64,000 nucleotides of DNA from Candidatus Bathyarchaeota archaeon (GTDB taxonomy: Archaea; Thermoproteota; Bathyarchaeia; Bathyarchaeales; Bathyarchaeaceae), in NCBI GenBank assembly GCA_963772765.1, contig CAVYYP010000004.1, positions 4,558 to 68,557 on the forward strand. Reading direction: 5' to 3'. Of the stretch, positions 13,376 through 57,511 are shown in pieces. The translations under genes and the position numbers were made by a program. The notes under the pieces were generated by a model. The model searched no databases, was not told the origin of the DNA, and was given only the letters and a program-made list of their open reading frames with translations. Numbering within the stretch: position 1 is the stretch's first letter; each line of letters starts with the position of its first letter.

Positions 13376-13482
13376 TCTAAAGAAGCCCCCCGCTTTGAAA
13401 ATACGTTAGACTACAATGTTTAAAAGCATTGTCACAACGCATAATCAATATACAGAAAACAAGACTGATAGGTGAACAAAAA

Positions 13483-14442
13483 ATGATGGTCTACAGCATA
13501 CCCCTGCTGGCAATATCATTACTGCTCATCATGCTAATCAGCGACCGAATCATACGATACGTCCTAATCATATCCAGAGCCATCGGACTATCTGAAATGG
13601 CTGCAGGCTTCATCCTCCTTTCTATTATCACTTCGCTCCCAGAACTTTCAGTATCCATAGTCGCATCTCTCGGCGGCGAAGGCGGACTCTCCGTAGGAAA
13701 CGTCCTAGGCTCAAACGTAGCCAATCTAACCATAGTCCTCGGACTAGCAATACTACTCGCAAGAAAAACAATCACACTAAAAGGACAATCAAACAAAGAA
13801 CTCGTACAATTCCTGTTCATCTCATCAATAATACCCCTGTTCATAGTCCAACGAGGCAGTTTAGGTCCAGTCCTTGGAATCGTGCTACTGATACTATTCG
13901 CATATTTCGGGGTCACAATCTCACGAAAAACAGAAAATACAGCACCCACAAATGAAACCCCAACACCAAACAAAAAAGAAAACTTTGCAGCAGTAAGCAT
14001 CAAATTCATTGCAGGCGTTGCGCTGATAATTCTATTTTCCAAGTTTGCCGTTGACAGCTCGGTAGAAATTGCAGACGCTATAGGATTGCCTTCATCAATA
14101 ATCGGCGCAACAATCATCGGACTGGGAACATCATTGCCCGAACTGGCAACAACCATCCAAGCCCTAAAACAGGGACTGGTCAGCATGGCTCTCGGAAACC
14201 TGCTTGGAAGCTGCATCACAAACATCACCCTCATCCTCGGAGTATCCTCACTGCTCTCATTCTCTGAAGTCAACATAGTAGCAGTGCAAAGCATAATGTT
14301 CTACGTGCTAGTTTCATCACTAAGCGTCTGGTACATGGTAGGAGCCGCAGAACGGCTAACCAAAAAATCAGCCATATTCCTGTGCATGATATACGTCGTC
14401 TTTATCCTGCAGCAAGTAGGAGTGTCAGTACTCATCTTCTAA
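13483..14442 (+). CDS. Na+/Ca2+ exchanger (CaCA / YrbG-like) membrane protein
   Basis: Two alpha-repeat motifs: SLPELSVSIVA...GNVLGSNVANL and GTSLPELATTI...GNLLGSCITNI. The likely start is MMVYSIPLL. Confidence 0.8.
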   Translation: MMVYSIPLLAISLLLIMLISDRIIRYVLIISRAIGLSEMAAGFILLSIITSLPELSVSIVASLGGEGGLSVGNVLGSNVANLTIVLGLAILLARKTITLKGQSNKELVQFLFISSIIPLFIVQRGSLGPVLGIVLLILFAYFGVTISRKTENTAPTNETPTPNKKENFAAVSIKFIAGVALIILFSKFAVDSSVEIADAIGLPSSIIGATIIGLGTSLPELATTIQALKQGLVSMALGNLLGSCITNITLILGVSSLLSFSEVNIVAVQSIMFYVLVSSLSVWYMVGAAERLTKKSAIFLCMIYVVFILQQVGVSVLIF

Positions 14443-16830: not shown

Positions 16831-17952
16831 ATGGAAAATAGTATCTGCACAGTTGAACAACTCAAAAAAATTACAGACCTGTCTCCTAAGGAAGAAAAGA
16901 AACTAAAACAGATTATCAAGAAACATCCGATGCGTGTTACCCCATATTACATGTCTTTGATAGACTGGACTAACCCGTCAGACCCAATCAAAAAGATGTC
17001 TATACCATCAATGAAAGAGTTTGACCTTAAAGGATCATATGACACAAGCGGAGAATCCGAAAACACCAAAATGCCTGGGCTTCAACACAAATATTCAGAA
17101 ACAGCACTGATTTTGGCTACGAACAAGTGCGCGATGTACTGTAGGCATTGCTTCAGAAAAAGACTTGTTGGATTGCAAACTAAAGAGGTAGTAGAGCGCT
17201 TCGAGGACGCTGCAAAATACATTAAACAACATGAGCACATCAACAATGTTCTGATCACTGGCGGCGACCCTCTTGTTCTTCCCAACAAGGTTGTTGAAAA
17301 GTTTCTTTCAATATTGTCAGAAAATCCTAAAATAAAGTTCATAAGATTTGGCAGCAGAGCCCCAGTAACTTGGCCTTCACGTTTCGAAGACAAGGAGCTC
17401 TTAAGAATTTTCGCCAAGTATTCGCGTCCAGACAGACGAATATATGTTGTCACACAGTTTAACCATCCAAAAGAAATAACAAGGCAGACAATCAAGGCTG
17501 TAGATAATTTGCTAAAGGCAGGAGTTATTGTAAACAACCAAGCAGTCCTGCTAAAAGGCGTAAACGATGACCCACATGTATTGGCAAAGCTTTTGAACAA
17601 TCTGGTTAGCATTGGCGTTAATCCGTACTATGTTTTCCAGTGCCGACCAGTTAAGAGGGTGAAAAGCAATTTTCAGGTGCCCCTCTGTAAAGCCACAGAA
17701 ATTGTTGAAGAAGCAAAGGCTCACTGCAACGGTCACAGTAAACGGTTCAGGTTTATTATGTCTCACAAAACAGGCAAAATAGAAATTCTGGGAATACAGG
17801 ATGACGAAATTTACTTCAAATATCATCAGGCAAAAAACAGAAAGAAAATCGGAAAGATATTCACAAGACCAGTTGACAAAAACGCTGGTTGGCTAGAGGA
17901 TTTCAAATCCAGTCCAGTTCAGCTTCTTGATGCTTCTCCCTATTTGTTGTAG
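16831..17952 (+). CDS. KamA-family radical SAM aminomutase (lysine 2,3-aminomutase-like)
   Basis: CAMYCRHCFRKR (CxxxCxxC), VLITGGDPL, NNQAVLLKGVND and PYYVFQCRP are KamA family blocks. Confidence 0.8.
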   Translation: MENSICTVEQLKKITDLSPKEEKKLKQIIKKHPMRVTPYYMSLIDWTNPSDPIKKMSIPSMKEFDLKGSYDTSGESENTKMPGLQHKYSETALILATNKCAMYCRHCFRKRLVGLQTKEVVERFEDAAKYIKQHEHINNVLITGGDPLVLPNKVVEKFLSILSENPKIKFIRFGSRAPVTWPSRFEDKELLRIFAKYSRPDRRIYVVTQFNHPKEITRQTIKAVDNLLKAGVIVNNQAVLLKGVNDDPHVLAKLLNNLVSIGVNPYYVFQCRPVKRVKSNFQVPLCKATEIVEEAKAHCNGHSKRFRFIMSHKTGKIEILGIQDDEIYFKYHQAKNRKKIGKIFTRPVDKNAGWLEDFKSSPVQLLDASPYLL

Positions 17953-18290: not shown

Positions 18291-18480
18291 AAATGGAGGC
18301 TTTGTTTATGTGTGTTACGTCTTTGCGTATGTTTTGTTTTTTCCGTTAAGTCCTTGTCAAAAGTTTATTTGTTCACATTTTTTGACAAAATTCTGTTCAA
18401 GGAGCCCATAAGTCAATTTGAGAGTTTAAACTAAAATCAAAAACTTTAAATCTTAAATCAATACTTTAAAAAAGTCAATT

Positions 18481-18582
18481 GGATGGTTGGGACTCGGAGA
18501 ACCACCCCCATTCTCTCTTCGCCAAGAGATTTACCCGCTCTGTGGGCGAACTGCGTGCAATGCGACGTGCTCCCAACCATTT
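18481..18582 (+). ncRNA. Candidate structured RNA (four-way junction), copy 1 of a two-member family; function unknown
   Basis: G+C-rich island with a 10-bp closing helix (18483-18492 / 18571-18580) and three hairpins. TATA-like TTTAAATC lies at 18445-18452 and U-runs follow. It is homologous to the reverse complement of 39209-39322. Confidence 0.6.
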
Positions 18583-18667
18583 CAAGCAATTTTTGAAGAA
18601 AATATCGGAAAGTTTATTTTGTTTAAGATTTGTTTTCCCGTACACAACGTGTCCGCTAAAAAATGTG

Positions 18668-19615
18668 ATGTCCTTCATGATTTACGATAACTGCAATCGT
18701 CCTGTTCTCAATCTGAGAATTTCTGTAACCCAAAAATGTGACAAACATTGCCCTTACTGCCACAGGGAAGGCGAAAGAGAACCCACAACGCTCATGACAG
18801 TAAAAGAGATTCTTCGCATAGTCAGGATAGCAATCAGTCTAGGAATCTCCAGAGTTAAACTCACAGGAGGAGAACCACTTCTTCGCAAAGAAATCGTTGA
18901 AATTGTCAAAGGAATAACTGCCCTAGAGGGCTTGACCGACCTGTCAATGACCACTAACGGCACCCACCTAAAAGGATTGGCAAAAGACTTGAAGGTTGCG
19001 GGACTGGAAAGAGTAAACGTGAGCCTTCCTACGTTAGACCATAAGGTGTACAGTGAAGTCATGGGAGGCAATCTGCAGGATGCTCTTGATGGCATTAAAG
19101 CTGCCGTAGATGCCGGACTAAAGCCAGTGAAGGTGAACATGCTGCTTCTCAAAGAGATAAATGACCAAGAAGTGGAAAAGATGATGCATTTTGCCGCGCA
19201 GACAGGAACAATTTTGCAGATGATTGAATTGGAACCAATTAATCTTGGTAAAGGATACTATGAGAGCCATCATCTTAGCCTAGACAAGGTTGAAGACAAA
19301 CTGGAAAAGGTGGCTGTGGAAAAACGGGTTCGAAAGTTTATGCAAAAAAGACGGGTATATACTTTGCCTGATGTGAAGGTTGAGCTTATTCGTCCAATAG
19401 AGAATACAGAGTTTTGTGCCAGCTGCACACGCATTCGTGTAACTAGCGATGGAAAAATTAAGCCATGTCTTATGAGATCAGATAATTTGGTGGATTTTCT
19501 CACGCCCATGCGAAACGGAGCAGACGACAAAAAAATTTCGGAAATATTTATTGAAGCTGTGAAAAAGCGTGAACCATACTATAAAGTTGCAAAGGCATCT
19601 AAAACTGAAACTTGA
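18668..19615 (+). CDS. moaA: GTP 3',8-cyclase MoaA (radical SAM)
   Basis: LRISVTQKCDKHCPYCH (CxxxCxxC), KLTGGEPLLR and the C-terminal CASCTRIRVTSDGKIKPCL. The likely start is ATG 18668; the ORF track start at 18479 covers the RNA element. Confidence 0.85.
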   Translation: MSFMIYDNCNRPVLNLRISVTQKCDKHCPYCHREGEREPTTLMTVKEILRIVRIAISLGISRVKLTGGEPLLRKEIVEIVKGITALEGLTDLSMTTNGTHLKGLAKDLKVAGLERVNVSLPTLDHKVYSEVMGGNLQDALDGIKAAVDAGLKPVKVNMLLLKEINDQEVEKMMHFAAQTGTILQMIELEPINLGKGYYESHHLSLDKVEDKLEKVAVEKRVRKFMQKRRVYTLPDVKVELIRPIENTEFCASCTRIRVTSDGKIKPCLMRSDNLVDFLTPMRNGADDKKISEIFIEAVKKREPYYKVAKASKTET

Positions 19616-38440: not shown

Positions 38441-38815
38441 ATGTATAAAGGCGTCTGGGAGTTACTGTATGTTGAAGTGTTTAATGTGACGCGTGTCAGA
38501 GTTCAGAAGATTGAATCCGTCAAAGACCCTGAAGGCAACCTTGGCAAACGTATCGAACTAATCGAGGACCGGGTTATTCCCAGATTTGCCGTTAGACCCG
38601 CAACAGAAGAAGCAAGGATGGTTCAAGAAGTCATGAAAAGCTTACAGCAGCAGCTTCCAGTTCTTGCGACACAAACTACCCAGTTTGCTCTTCCAAAAAT
38701 GATCTTGTTTCTGACCGAGAGCGAATATGAACGGCTTGGAATAAATTTTGATGTAAACCAGATCTACGAACTGGAGCTTTTTGGTCAGTCCATAAGCTTC
38801 AAAAAAGCAACTTAG
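38441..38815 (+). CDS. Hypothetical protein
   Basis: ORF with no assignable motif. The start may be the internal GTG (VTRVRVQK). Confidence 0.4.
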   Translation: MYKGVWELLYVEVFNVTRVRVQKIESVKDPEGNLGKRIELIEDRVIPRFAVRPATEEARMVQEVMKSLQQQLPVLATQTTQFALPKMILFLTESEYERLGINFDVNQIYELELFGQSISFKKAT

Positions 38816-38889: not shown

Positions 38890-39171
38890 ATGCAAACTGG
38901 GGCTCACGTTTTTGTCAGCGGCAGAGTTCAAGGCGTATTTTTCAGGGTAGAGACCAGACGTGAAGCCATTAAACGAGATGTTGTGGGCTGGGTTCAAAAC
39001 ACATCTGATGGTAGAGTTGAAGCGGTTTTTGAGGGCGAAAAAGAAGACGTGGAAGAAATGGTTGATTTCTGTAGACGTGGACCGCCTAGTGCTCATGTTA
39101 CGGATGTGGATGTGCAATGGGGCAACTATTCGGGTTCATTTGAGGGTTTTAGAATTCGTTATACTGACTGA
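38890..39171 (+). CDS. acyP: Acylphosphatase
   Basis: VSGRVQGVFFR...GWVQNTSDGRVEAVFEG...RGPPSAHV is the canonical acylphosphatase signature. Confidence 0.9.
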   Translation: MQTGAHVFVSGRVQGVFFRVETRREAIKRDVVGWVQNTSDGRVEAVFEGEKEDVEEMVDFCRRGPPSAHVTDVDVQWGNYSGSFEGFRIRYTD

Positions 39172-39208
39172 TAGATTGTTCCTAGTTGTCTAAACTGTTA
39201 AGTTAAAA

Positions 39209-39322
39209 GGAGGATGGGGGACTTGGCGCATGCGCGCGTATGCACCGTCGATCGCTCAAGGAGAGGGTAATCTCTTGGCGAATGGAGAACAGGGGTATTT
39301 TCTCGGTGTCCCCTCACCATCC
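39209..39322 (-). ncRNA. Candidate structured RNA (four-way junction), copy 2 of the two-member family
   Basis: G+C-rich island between convergent genes. TTTATAT on the minus strand (39350-39356) lies about 28 nt upstream, and a U4 run follows. Helices GGGGAC/GUCCCC, GAGAA/UUCUC and GGUGCAU/AUGCGCC are present. Confidence 0.6.
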
Positions 39323-39453
39323 ATCAAAATCGACAAAAAGCATACTAGGATATAAACTTATTGTAATTGGAATCCGTATTTTCTGTTTTTGACACACACT
39401 TTTTCTTAACATATTGTTGTTTTTTGCGTTGTTTGTGTTTATTTTTGTTGTTT

Positions 39454-39975
39454 TTAGTTGGGTTGTTGACTGTTGATGTTTTCGCGTTTTTCTTTTTCTT
39501 GTTTTATCGCTGACACGTATTCTGTGAATGTGAGGTCGTGTATGCTTGGATAGTTTTTGATTGTGTATCTGACTTTGTTGAAGAGTTTTTTCATTATCTG
39601 TATCTCTATTATTTTTGAGCCTGTTCCGAAGATGTTCTCGAGAGCTTTTGAGAAGTCTTCAATTCTGCATGGTATGTCTTGGGCATCTATTTTGAACGTT
39701 TTCTCAAGATAGGTGTATATTACCTGTTTTGCTGATTCCCCGATTAGTGAGAGTCCTTCGTCTATTGCTTCTAGAAGGATTTTTTCGAATTTTGCTGGTT
39801 TTTTGTTTGTGCTGTGATTTGTGTCCTTTTGTGGTTTGAAGATTGTTGCTATTTTGTGCGGTAGTTGTGTTGTCTTTGTTGGGTTTGTGCGTAGGTACGT
39901 TTTGTATAAGTACCAGTTTGTTGTGAATGTTGGTGTGTCTTTTTCTTGTTCTGTTGTACTGTTGTTTTGTTCCAT
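39454..39975 (-). CDS. Hypothetical protein (low-complexity T/N/K-rich N-terminus, conserved-looking C-terminal helical domain)
   Basis: ORF. The C-terminal ILLEAIDEGLSLIGESAKQVIYTYLEKTFKI... resembles small archaeal regulator-like proteins (from memory, unverified). Confidence 0.4.
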   Translation of the reverse strand: MEQNNSTTEQEKDTPTFTTNWYLYKTYLRTNPTKTTQLPHKIATIFKPQKDTNHSTNKKPAKFEKILLEAIDEGLSLIGESAKQVIYTYLEKTFKIDAQDIPCRIEDFSKALENIFGTGSKIIEIQIMKKLFNKVRYTIKNYPSIHDLTFTEYVSAIKQEKEKRENINSQQPN

Positions 39976-40153: not shown

Positions 40154-40948
40154 TTGCCAACAATACTAGTAACCAACGACGACGGAATCAAGTCCATCGG
40201 ATTATCAGTCCTCACAAAGCAGCTAAAAAAACTGGGAGATGTAATAGTTGTCACCCCAGGTGACGAGAGAAGTGGTGTGGGCAAATCTATCAGCATAGGT
40301 CAGGTTAACGTATCTGAAGTTGATTTTGATGAAGGAATTAAGGCGTATGCTACGACTGGTACTCCTGCGGATTCGTTTTTGTTGGCTGTTAACAAGATTC
40401 TGAAATGTATGCCAGATTTGCTCGTGTCTGGGATTAATATTGGTCCAAACTTGGGTATAGATGACCTGTTGACTTCGGGTACTATCGGGGCGGCTTTTGA
40501 GGCTGCTATTCGTCATGTGCCTGCTGTTGCGGTTTCGTATTGTGTGTCTGAGATTAATGATAAGACATACGGGAAGGATACTATTCCTGTGGATGATTTG
40601 GAGTTAGCGGCGTCTATGGGCTATAAGGCTGCCAAGTTTGTGTTAGAGCAGGGGATGCCGTCTGATGTGGACATTGTTTCGATCAATGTACCTGAGGGCG
40701 CTGACCATGAGAATGTGCAGCTTACGAGTTTGTGTTATGATGGTTATGGTGACATTCACACAGAAGTTGAGGATGGTTACGTGATCAAGAGCTGGGCGCT
40801 ACGGCACTATCCGGATGGCGTTCATGGAACCGATATTCATGCAATCAAGACTGGGAACTGTATTTCTGTAACTCCTATCAAGTTGGGCTTTCTTCACAAC
40901 ACAGAAGTGATGAAGGATATGCTCGGTTCGTTGTCGGACGGCAGCTAG
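40154..40948 (+). CDS. surE: 5'/3'-nucleotidase SurE
   Basis: ILVTNDDGIKSIGL and GINIGPNLG are SurE signatures. TTG start. Confidence 0.85.
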   Translation: MPTILVTNDDGIKSIGLSVLTKQLKKLGDVIVVTPGDERSGVGKSISIGQVNVSEVDFDEGIKAYATTGTPADSFLLAVNKILKCMPDLLVSGINIGPNLGIDDLLTSGTIGAAFEAAIRHVPAVAVSYCVSEINDKTYGKDTIPVDDLELAASMGYKAAKFVLEQGMPSDVDIVSINVPEGADHENVQLTSLCYDGYGDIHTEVEDGYVIKSWALRHYPDGVHGTDIHAIKTGNCISVTPIKLGFLHNTEVMKDMLGSLSDGS

Positions 40949-53847: not shown

Positions 53848-53924
53848 GCCTCGGTGGCTCAGCCCGGTAGAGCGGCAGCCTCGTAAGTTGTTGGTCGCGG
53901 GTTCAAACCCCGCCCGGGGCTCCA
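53848..53924 (+). tRNA. tRNA-Thr (anticodon CGU), CCA encoded
   Basis: Hand-folded cloverleaf: acceptor GCCUCGG/CCGGGGC, D arm GCUC..GAGC, anticodon loop CUCGUAA, T arm GCGGG-UUCAAAC-CCCGC. A TATA-like TTAAAAATAT lies about 27 nt upstream. Confidence 0.9.
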
Positions 53925-57434: not shown

Positions 57435-57511
57435 GCCTCGGTGGCTCAGCCCGGTAGAGCGGCAGCCTTGTAAGCTGTTGGTCGCGGGATCAAATCCCGC
57501 CCGAGGCTCCA
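57435..57511 (+). tRNA. tRNA-Thr (anticodon UGU), CCA encoded
   Basis: Cloverleaf: acceptor GCCUCGG/CCGAGGC, anticodon loop CUUGUAA, T arm GCGGG-AUCAAAU-CCCGC. A TATA-like CTTTATAAG lies about 28 nt upstream. Confidence 0.9.

Follow-up and report, generated by a model that had tools for sequence, protein, structure and literature searches.

The 64-kb window (the whole stretch of DNA analyzed in this work) was assigned by protein comparison to a relative of Candidatus Bathyarchaeum; its MoaA is 78% identical to a Candidatus Bathyarchaeota protein and 80% identical to one from a Bathyarchaeia metagenome-assembled genome (MAG), and its SurE is 75-77% identical to proteins of Bathyarchaeum MAGs. 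Two copies of a structured RNA element were located in it. Copy 1, on the plus strand in front of moaA, is the element flagged in a first-pass annotation, and copy 2 lies on the minus strand between an acylphosphatase gene and surE (Table 1). Comparison of the sequences indicated that the elements are paralogs, each a gene for a stand-alone small RNA about 108-122 nucleotides (nt) long, and that the element represents a real, strand-specific, promoter-bearing family of non-coding structured RNA genes. The RNA matches no described family and is new relative to Rfam 15. Beyond what the first-pass annotation had seen, the flagged copy 1 was found to be the derived copy, and copy 2 the conserved, syntenic member of the family.

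The positions and sequences of helices P1, H1 and H2 and the distance to moaA in the first-pass annotation all agreed with the sequence, and the other features it had read there were recovered, namely a G+C-rich stretch folding as a four-way junction, a TATA box of its own, U3 and U5 runs after the helix, and a homologous copy on the reverse strand sharing an identical 14-mer. Positions 18481-18582 formed a G+C-rich island (55% G+C against 40-42% in the background), and unguided folding by minimum free energy (MFE) in RNAfold returned the four-way junction for copy 1 at -36 kcal/mol (z -2.2); the antisense strand folded unremarkably (z -0.7). The same junction was obtained for copy 2 at -44.4 kcal/mol (z -4.35), with 0 of 200 shuffles as stable. 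Six of seven further MFE folds, covering five of six orthologs and the form of copy 1 in strain L042, showed this junction again with z values from -2.0 to -4.2, and the fold of L057 contained P1 and H1 only. The copy 1 transcript is likely slightly longer than first proposed, running from 18478 to about 18585.

Exactly two copies were found in the window by nhmmer and two covariance models (R1, and R2, in which copy 1 was included), and the 14-mer TTCGCCAAGAGATT also occurred exactly twice, once in each copy. The copies share 59% identity. In the inner P1 of copy 2, GGGGAC/GUCCCC stands where copy 1 has UUGGGA/UCCCAA, so that four of the six pairs differ on both sides, and H3 is a hairpin of different sequence in each, so the compensatory changes earlier claimed for P1 and H3 were borne out. 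The 5' strand of H2 (UUCGCCAAGAG) is invariant, its 3' partner being CUCU-C-CUUG-A-GCGA in copy 2 versus CUCU-GUG-GGCGAA in copy 1, and the loops of copy 1 retain ACCCC and UACC[C/A]. Among the orthologs, a register shift of P1 (GGUGG/CCACC) changed both strands in L047 and L061, and a third arrangement of the H2 3' strand was seen in L054 and L057. In an alignment of 23 sequences (22 distinct), which was fitted to the model and leans towards structure, standard pairs filled 96.9% of the pair cells, against 43-57% when the 3' partners were slid by 1-3 columns. The comparison of the paralogs is stronger comparative evidence for the fold than the covariation among orthologs.

The strand is fixed, since 32 G.U cells of the alignment would be A.C on the opposite strand, as had been argued from the G:U pairs of the two window copies; R1 scored the antisense strand at 27 bits at most, against 110-152 bits for the sense strand. 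Single-base indels among the orthologs fall in the H1 loop, the H2 loop and P1, and the open frames across the gene vary from species to species, so that the gene is not coding, in line with the earlier reading. At the sequence level it carries what marks a stand-alone archaeal small RNA gene, its own transcription factor B recognition element (BRE) and TATA box, expected at about -26, and an oligo-U stretch. Counted from the first T of the TATA box, the structure begins 33 nt downstream in copy 1 and 31 nt downstream in copy 2, and T-runs follow both. The promoter element CAATAA[C/G]TTTATATT was kept at the same distance in 14 of 14 genome orthologs, and a BRE/TATA element at a fixed distance in about 20 homologs.

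Table 1. Features of the two RNA genes and of their neighborhoods in the window.
Feature	Position	Strand	Sequence or supporting evidence
RNA copy 1, diverged paralog	18478-18585	+	MFE fold; covariance-model scores 40.6 bits (R1) and 68 bits (R2)
Copy 1 P1	18483-18492 with 18571-18580	+	AUGGUUGGGA with UCCCAACCAU
Copy 1 P1 in the RNAfold fold	18481-18492 / 18571-18582	+	
Copy 1 H1	18496-18516	+	GGAGAA[CCACCCCCA]UUCUCU
Copy 1 H2	18518-18550	+	UUCGCC-A-AGAG[AUUUACCCG]CUCU-GUG-GGCGAA
Copy 1 H3, short hairpin	18552-18569	+	
Copy 1 BRE/TATA-like promoter	18440-18453; TATA 18445-18451	+	AAAACTTTAAATCT; TATA TTTAAAT; aligns with copy 2 promoter AATAAGTTTATATCC
Copy 1 likely archaeal termination signal	T5 run 18590-18594; T3 run also 18580-18582	+	sequence reading
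RNA copy 2, conserved ancestral gene	39205-39325	-	5'-GAUGGAUGGUGAGGGGAC ... GUCCCCCAUCCUCCUUUU-3'; covariance model 142.9 bits
Copy 2 helices		-	P1; H1 loop AAAAUACCCCUG; H2 loop AUUACC; H3 loop ACGCGCGC; four-way junction
Copy 2 BRE/TATA promoter	39363-39349; TATA 39356-39350	-	CAATAAGTTTATATC; sequence reading
Acylphosphatase gene, one border of the conserved site	38890-39171	+	Pfam PF00708; synteny
surE, other border of the conserved site	40154-40948	+	synteny; PF01975 in orthologous loci
ORF173, clade-specific protein	39454-39975	-	between RNA gene and surE in most species
Approximate inserted block carrying copy 1	18345-18605	+	filled sites (window, L042) aligned to empty sites (L043, L001, L004, L005)
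moaA own promoter block	18607-18650	+	GGAAAGTTTATTTT ... GTTTTCCCGTACACAACG; kept in all moaA orthologs, with or without RNA
moaA (GTP 3',8-cyclase), neighbor outside the RNA unit	18668-19615	+	Pfam Radical_SAM and Mob_synth_C

The surE loci of the genome collection were fetched and searched by nhmmer and then by R1. This search of relatives with a covariance model, a check that the first-pass annotation had advised, detected full-length copy-2 homologs (110-152 bits) in 14 species-level genomes (L044, L046-L054, L057, L061, L074 and L088), including L047, the complete genome of Bathyarchaeum tardum, and five further metagenome contigs (L130-L134) carried a copy-2-type gene with the same synteny. 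One ortholog was present per locus, always on the minus strand and flanked by the plus-strand acylphosphatase and surE genes. Copy 2 is convergent with the acylphosphatase gene and, as first noted, has no downstream gene on its own strand. The copy-2-type sequences (19 distinct) showed a mean identity of 86% and a minimum of 74% with loops and junctions included, and these were as conserved as the stems; the SurE proteins of the orthologous loci were 63-77% identical to that of the window. Copy 2 was accordingly placed, by sequence and synteny, as the ancestral and strongly constrained syntenic gene of the clade around Candidatus Bathyarchaeum.

In the more distant Bathyarchaeia (SurE 49-64% identical), the gap between the acylphosphatase gene and surE is mostly 60-160 nt, and the RNA was found in none of these loci. 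No further copies were returned by the R2 scan of 772 kb of Bathyarchaeia and outgroup loci, and scans of viral contigs with two core patterns gave chance matches only. The metagenome scan with the core GCCAAGAGAN{0,2}TTACCCNCTC, an over-strict pattern that would miss the later orthologs reading GAGAC[C/A]TACCC, retrieved same-species copies (L034/L038 and L035/L037) and about 30 chance matches. So far the family is known only from the Bathyarchaeum group of sediment archaea. It may be wider than seen here, because copy 1 is too divergent for a recent duplicate and the genome DNA searched consisted of the moaA and surE neighborhoods. The stretch separating the acylphosphatase gene from surE is itself a hot spot of variation. 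It measures about 1.9 kb in B. tardum (L047 7843-9693, corresponding to window 39171-39205), where it encodes a 233-amino-acid protein with tandem coiled-coil repeats (ERDEYIKSQVAVIGEREEYIQAQDAVIA), and it holds an extra TusA gene in L134. The gene of arcadin-1 (crenactin-associated cytoskeleton; 38441-38815, plus strand) was located two genes from copy 2, and its presence fits the assignment to a relative of Candidatus Bathyarchaeum.

Copy 1 showed a different history. Its structure ends at 18582, 86 nt before the moaA ATG at 18668. The cupin-moaA spacers of relatives were fetched, and every one of them contained a common block, GGAAAAGTTTAT[T/C]TT ... GTTTTC[C/T]C[A/G]TACA[C/T]AACG, that corresponds to window 18607-18650; by its sequence this block is the BRE/TATA and initiation region of moaA itself, downstream of the RNA. 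Copy 1 was present only in the species of the window (L034, L038) and in the L042 strain (MoaA 94% identical), and was absent from L043 (MoaA 93%), L001-L003 (88%) and L004-L007 (77-80%). Filled sites differed from empty ones by an extra block of about 250-260 nt, at the edges of which the moaA TATA core AAAGTTTATTT is duplicated (18360-18370 and 18609-18619). Because relatives with 77-93% identical MoaA lack the RNA, and the filled sites carry the extra block, copy 1 was judged to belong to a block inserted recently in front of a moaA promoter that stayed intact. Copy 1 has no regulatory tie to moaA.

Several further features were noted around copy 1. A perfect 9-nt inverted repeat (TTGTCAAAA/TTTTGACAA, 18354-18388) brackets the second AAAGTTTATTT at the left edge of the block, which looks like a duplicated and now orphaned promoter. 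Between 18410 and 18488 there is a local repeat (AAGTCAATTTGAGAGTT / AAGTCAATTGGATGGTT) at 62-nt spacing, with a 21-nt tandem pair at 18425-18466, and small duplications seem to have generated the stretch immediately before copy 1 together with its TATA box. Directly before moaA, in conserved synteny, come a radical-SAM protein gene (16831-17952, plus strand) and a divergently transcribed cupin gene.

The apical loops were then compared. UACCC is common to the H1 loop (AAAAUACCCCUA) and the H2 loop (A[C/U]NUACC). The H3 apical loop carries a self-complementary GCGCGC in 17 of the 19 distinct copy-2-type sequences, a hexamer predicted to be exposed as in a kissing-loop element, and it persists where the adjoining stem was remodeled (L054 AUCUGCGCGCAA, L057 AAAAGCGCGCAA, L131 AUAUGCGCGCAA); the perfect palindrome is missing in copy 1 and L133. 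The retroviral dimerization loop of human immunodeficiency virus type 1, the dimerization initiation site, is AAGCGCGCA. The H3 loop has the same GCGCGC hexamer flanked by A/U, as in the L057 sequence given above; the analogy to a putative dimerization of the new RNA is one of mechanism only, with no homology. The long P1 seals both ends of the molecule, and the promoter is a near-consensus archaeal BRE/TATA (CAATAAsTTTATATT) like those before the two transfer RNA (tRNA)-Thr genes of the window.

Owing to the twin UACCC loops, the GCGCGC loop, the sealing P1 and the near-consensus promoter, these sequences suggested a stable, probably abundant, folded particle. Such an RNA would act in trans, and its most likely role would be that of a protein-binding scaffold or decoy, rather than of a linear antisense RNA. 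The C-rich apical loops of H1 and H2 with their UACCC core are possibly two equivalent binding sites, and the self-complementary loop of H3 could mediate loop-loop dimerization. A protein-binding or self-associating RNA of ribonucleoprotein (RNP) type acting in trans was therefore ranked first by us, at a confidence a little short of even, ahead of a base-pairing small RNA (sRNA) in second and an accessory or mobile module in third place. Only as a speculation, and a rather doubtful one, do we extend this to a new class of abundant, essential-like RNA of the Bathyarchaeum lineage, which would form the core of an RNP, dimerize through GCGCGC kissing loops and bind a partner with its twin UACCC loops, with copy-1-type variants elsewhere in Bathyarchaeia.

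Several observations weigh against an RNP-type RNA. Changes on both sides were seen in only 3 of the 35 pairs and 14 pairs were invariant; strict covariation is thin, being sparse because the orthologs are about 86% identical, and the fold rests mostly on thermodynamics and the paralog comparison. Copy 1 is without the GCGCGC loop in H3. It may also be decaying, because its change between two strains (3.9%) was no slower than that of its spacer as a whole (1.2-7.5%). The protein ORF173, encoded next to copy 2, is missing beside the RNA in three species that keep the RNA, and was rejected as an RNA-binding partner, having no recognizable RNA-binding fold and no family match. The transcript, its ends and its abundance are likewise taken from sequence. 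Finally, the C-rich loops fit a base-pairing sRNA equally well.

Such an sRNA would act in trans, its C-rich loops (UACCCC and UACCC) pairing with G-rich stretches of mRNA, and we regard it as unlikely, yet as the most serious competitor of the RNP-type RNA. Methanosarcina sRNA154, with its loops, and staphylococcal RsaE and RNAIII, with their UCCC loops, serve as models for it. It would account for the independent promoter and terminator, the restriction to a single lineage and the conserved single-stranded C-rich loops. However, neither the window nor 16 related loci (about 20 kb searched per genome) showed a recurring complementary site, and start codons in this genome are not preceded by a GGGG-type motif. 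The best complementarity, 13 nt at 13830-13842 with another of 11 nt at 13611-13621 (minus strand), was at chance frequency; in copy 2 these matches would pair with the H1 loop and the 3' tail, and both are antisense to a Na/Ca-exchanger gene (13429-14442, plus strand). The whole molecule is conserved, stems and junctions too, which would be unusual for a seed-driven sRNA. The new RNA resembles sRNA154 in its presumably independent transcription, its restriction at genus or family level and the high conservation of its sequence and apical loops, and differs from it as a compact four-way junction closed by its own ends, conserved throughout and with no target complementarity found.

In the third-ranked explanation the RNA belongs to a small accessory or mobile module that inserts into intergenic promoter regions; it might be a partner of ORF173, for instance, or resemble an antitoxin or guide RNA. 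In 11 of the 14 genomes, the RNA and surE are separated by an open reading frame of 150-215 amino acids (ORF173 in the window). This clade-specific family comprises 222 clusters (proteins grouped at 90% identity). Its proteins combine an invariant FTTNWYLYKTYL motif on the N-terminal side with a basic low-complexity linker and a helical domain of about 95 residues at the C terminus. No match to ORF173 was found in Pfam, NCBIfam or PHROG. Its AlphaFold model is of moderate confidence (pLDDT 64 overall and about 90 in the C-terminal domain), and the solved structure closest to the predicted C-terminal domain is the uncharacterized PH0832 (2p9x).

In favor of a mobile module, both locations are insertions relative to outgroups; for copy 1, strains with 93-94% identical MoaA include both filled and empty sites, with the TATA core duplicated at the edges, and copy 2, with or without ORF173, stands in an otherwise 60-160-nt spacer. 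ORF173 is as clade-specific as the RNA, and the divergence of copy 1 (59% identity), too large for a recent duplicate of copy 2, suggests import from elsewhere. Against this, no transposase, integrase or reverse transcriptase was found nearby and the unit is not framed by terminal inverted repeats; each occupied locus has a single copy, and no other turned up in about 770 kb of related DNA, nor did any in the viral contigs. The position is stable across at least 19 species or contigs, and three species keep the RNA without ORF173. These results made a mobile module improbable, and the RNP-type RNA remained the preferred explanation.

That the RNA belongs to no known class had been proposed by eye, and it held in the database searches. 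At gathering score, the 4227 families of Rfam 15 matched only two tRNA-Thr genes in the whole window, and ARAGORN also returned only these two. At E<=10, both window copies and two orthologs gave nothing overlapping the structure except chance fragment matches. None of RF00001, RF00005, RF00080 and RF02683, nor any ribozyme family with a four-way junction, matched the element, and a literature search for small or structured RNAs of Bathyarchaeia returned nothing relevant. A highly divergent member of a housekeeping class (tRNA-like, 5S rRNA or guide sRNA) was considered very improbable. The length of about 120 nt, the unlinked single-copy gene and the strong promoter do recall crenarchaeal 5S genes, the four-arm topology is cloverleaf-like, and the 3' end CCAUCCUCCUUUU is similar to the way in which the two tRNA-Thr genes end (CCA-UCCUUUU). 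But four members gave no Rfam match at E<=10, ARAGORN called only the two tRNA-Thr genes, the junction is four-way, reading revealed no T-loop or D-loop, loop C/E, C/D or ACA boxes, and most Bathyarchaeia lack the gene at this site, so that it is not universal. The tRNA-Thr genes themselves (53848-53924, CGU, and 57435-57511, UGU, plus strand) encode CCA followed by UC(C)UUUU, and their likeness to the new RNA at the 3' end may be shared terminator context only.

Individual classes were rejected on their own signatures. A tRNA has in common with the new RNA four arms round a junction, paired ends, a strong promoter and a short U-rich trailer, but the new RNA is 120 nt long, has no D-, anticodon- or T-loop signatures (no GTTCRANYC-type T-loop by reading, with RF00005 and ARAGORN negative) and has junction spacers of 2-5 nt. 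For 5S rRNA, no loop C/E was read, the junction is four-way and not three-way, and the gene is absent at the site in most Bathyarchaeia. The 5' UGAUGG is one base off a C box (RUGAUGA) and no CUGA was read, which rejected a box C/D guide; an H/ACA guide was rejected by the lack of a 3' ACA on reading and of any Rfam snoRNA-type match at E<=10. Three motifs were also read and dismissed, a kink-turn in the P1 UGA bulge and a bulge-helix-bulge splicing motif (neither GA nor a second bulge on the opposing strand), and pairing of the conserved 5' flank CGCUC with GAGCG in H2, for which L061 and L047 change one side without compensation. The yybP-ykoY Mn2+ and czcD NiCo aptamers are four-way junctions with conserved nucleotides in internal loops near the junction. 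They resemble the new RNA in size and in the four-helix junction; the new RNA, however, lacks an expression platform and a downstream gene, its conserved nucleotides lie in apical loops, neither riboswitch model (RF00080, RF02683) matched, and copy 2 is convergent with its neighbor.

A spurious open reading frame (MRAYAPSIAQGEG.SLGEWRIGVFSLRPLTIHQERQK) runs antisense to the RNA gene, and one such frame is in the protein collection. A profile of the antisense peptides retrieved 28 'hypothetical proteins' of 39-78 amino acids, all of them translations of copy-2-type genes. The mis-annotated proteins are P0001 and P0121-P0149, where P0001 is a 378-amino-acid 'MoaA' whose first 63 residues translate copy 1 (window 18479-19615). 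Gene callers thus offer these 28 antisense proteins and the extended MoaA to the notion that no functional RNA exists and that a DNA-level element or a short protein-coding gene is conserved instead. We give this hardly any credence, as the frames are broken by 1-nt indels, frame and strand of the open reading frames vary between species, the promoter is conserved on one strand, and the helices are kept through G.U pairs and compensatory changes.

The least credible alternative is a cis-regulatory leader, a molybdenum cofactor (Moco) or other riboswitch controlling moaA, for which copy 1 lies suitably 86 nt upstream on the same strand, but which the comparative data excluded, since neither RF01055 (at gathering score or E<=10, in either copy) nor any other riboswitch model matched, the RNA and the moaA start codon are separated by the conserved BRE/TATA of that gene, orthologs of moaA at 77-93% identity lack the RNA, and the conserved copy is far from Moco genes with no downstream gene. 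The likeness to the Moco riboswitch is limited to the position of copy 1 before moaA. The first-pass preference for a stand-alone RNA over a Moco-type leader was therefore upheld by the promoter of moaA downstream of the RNA and the moaA orthologs without it.

Bathyarchaeia belong to the most abundant archaeal groups of anoxic sediments, and to our knowledge almost nothing is known about their non-coding RNAs. Public data mis-annotate the gene described here as 'hypothetical proteins' and as N-terminally extended MoaA, which a covariance model would correct. Its distribution as seen so far is narrow, and the lineage has a cultivated representative, Bathyarchaeum tardum, that carries the gene (locus L047). 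An RNA gene that is more conserved than the surrounding protein genes, has a near-consensus promoter and belongs to no family is a concrete lead to new RNA biology in these archaea.

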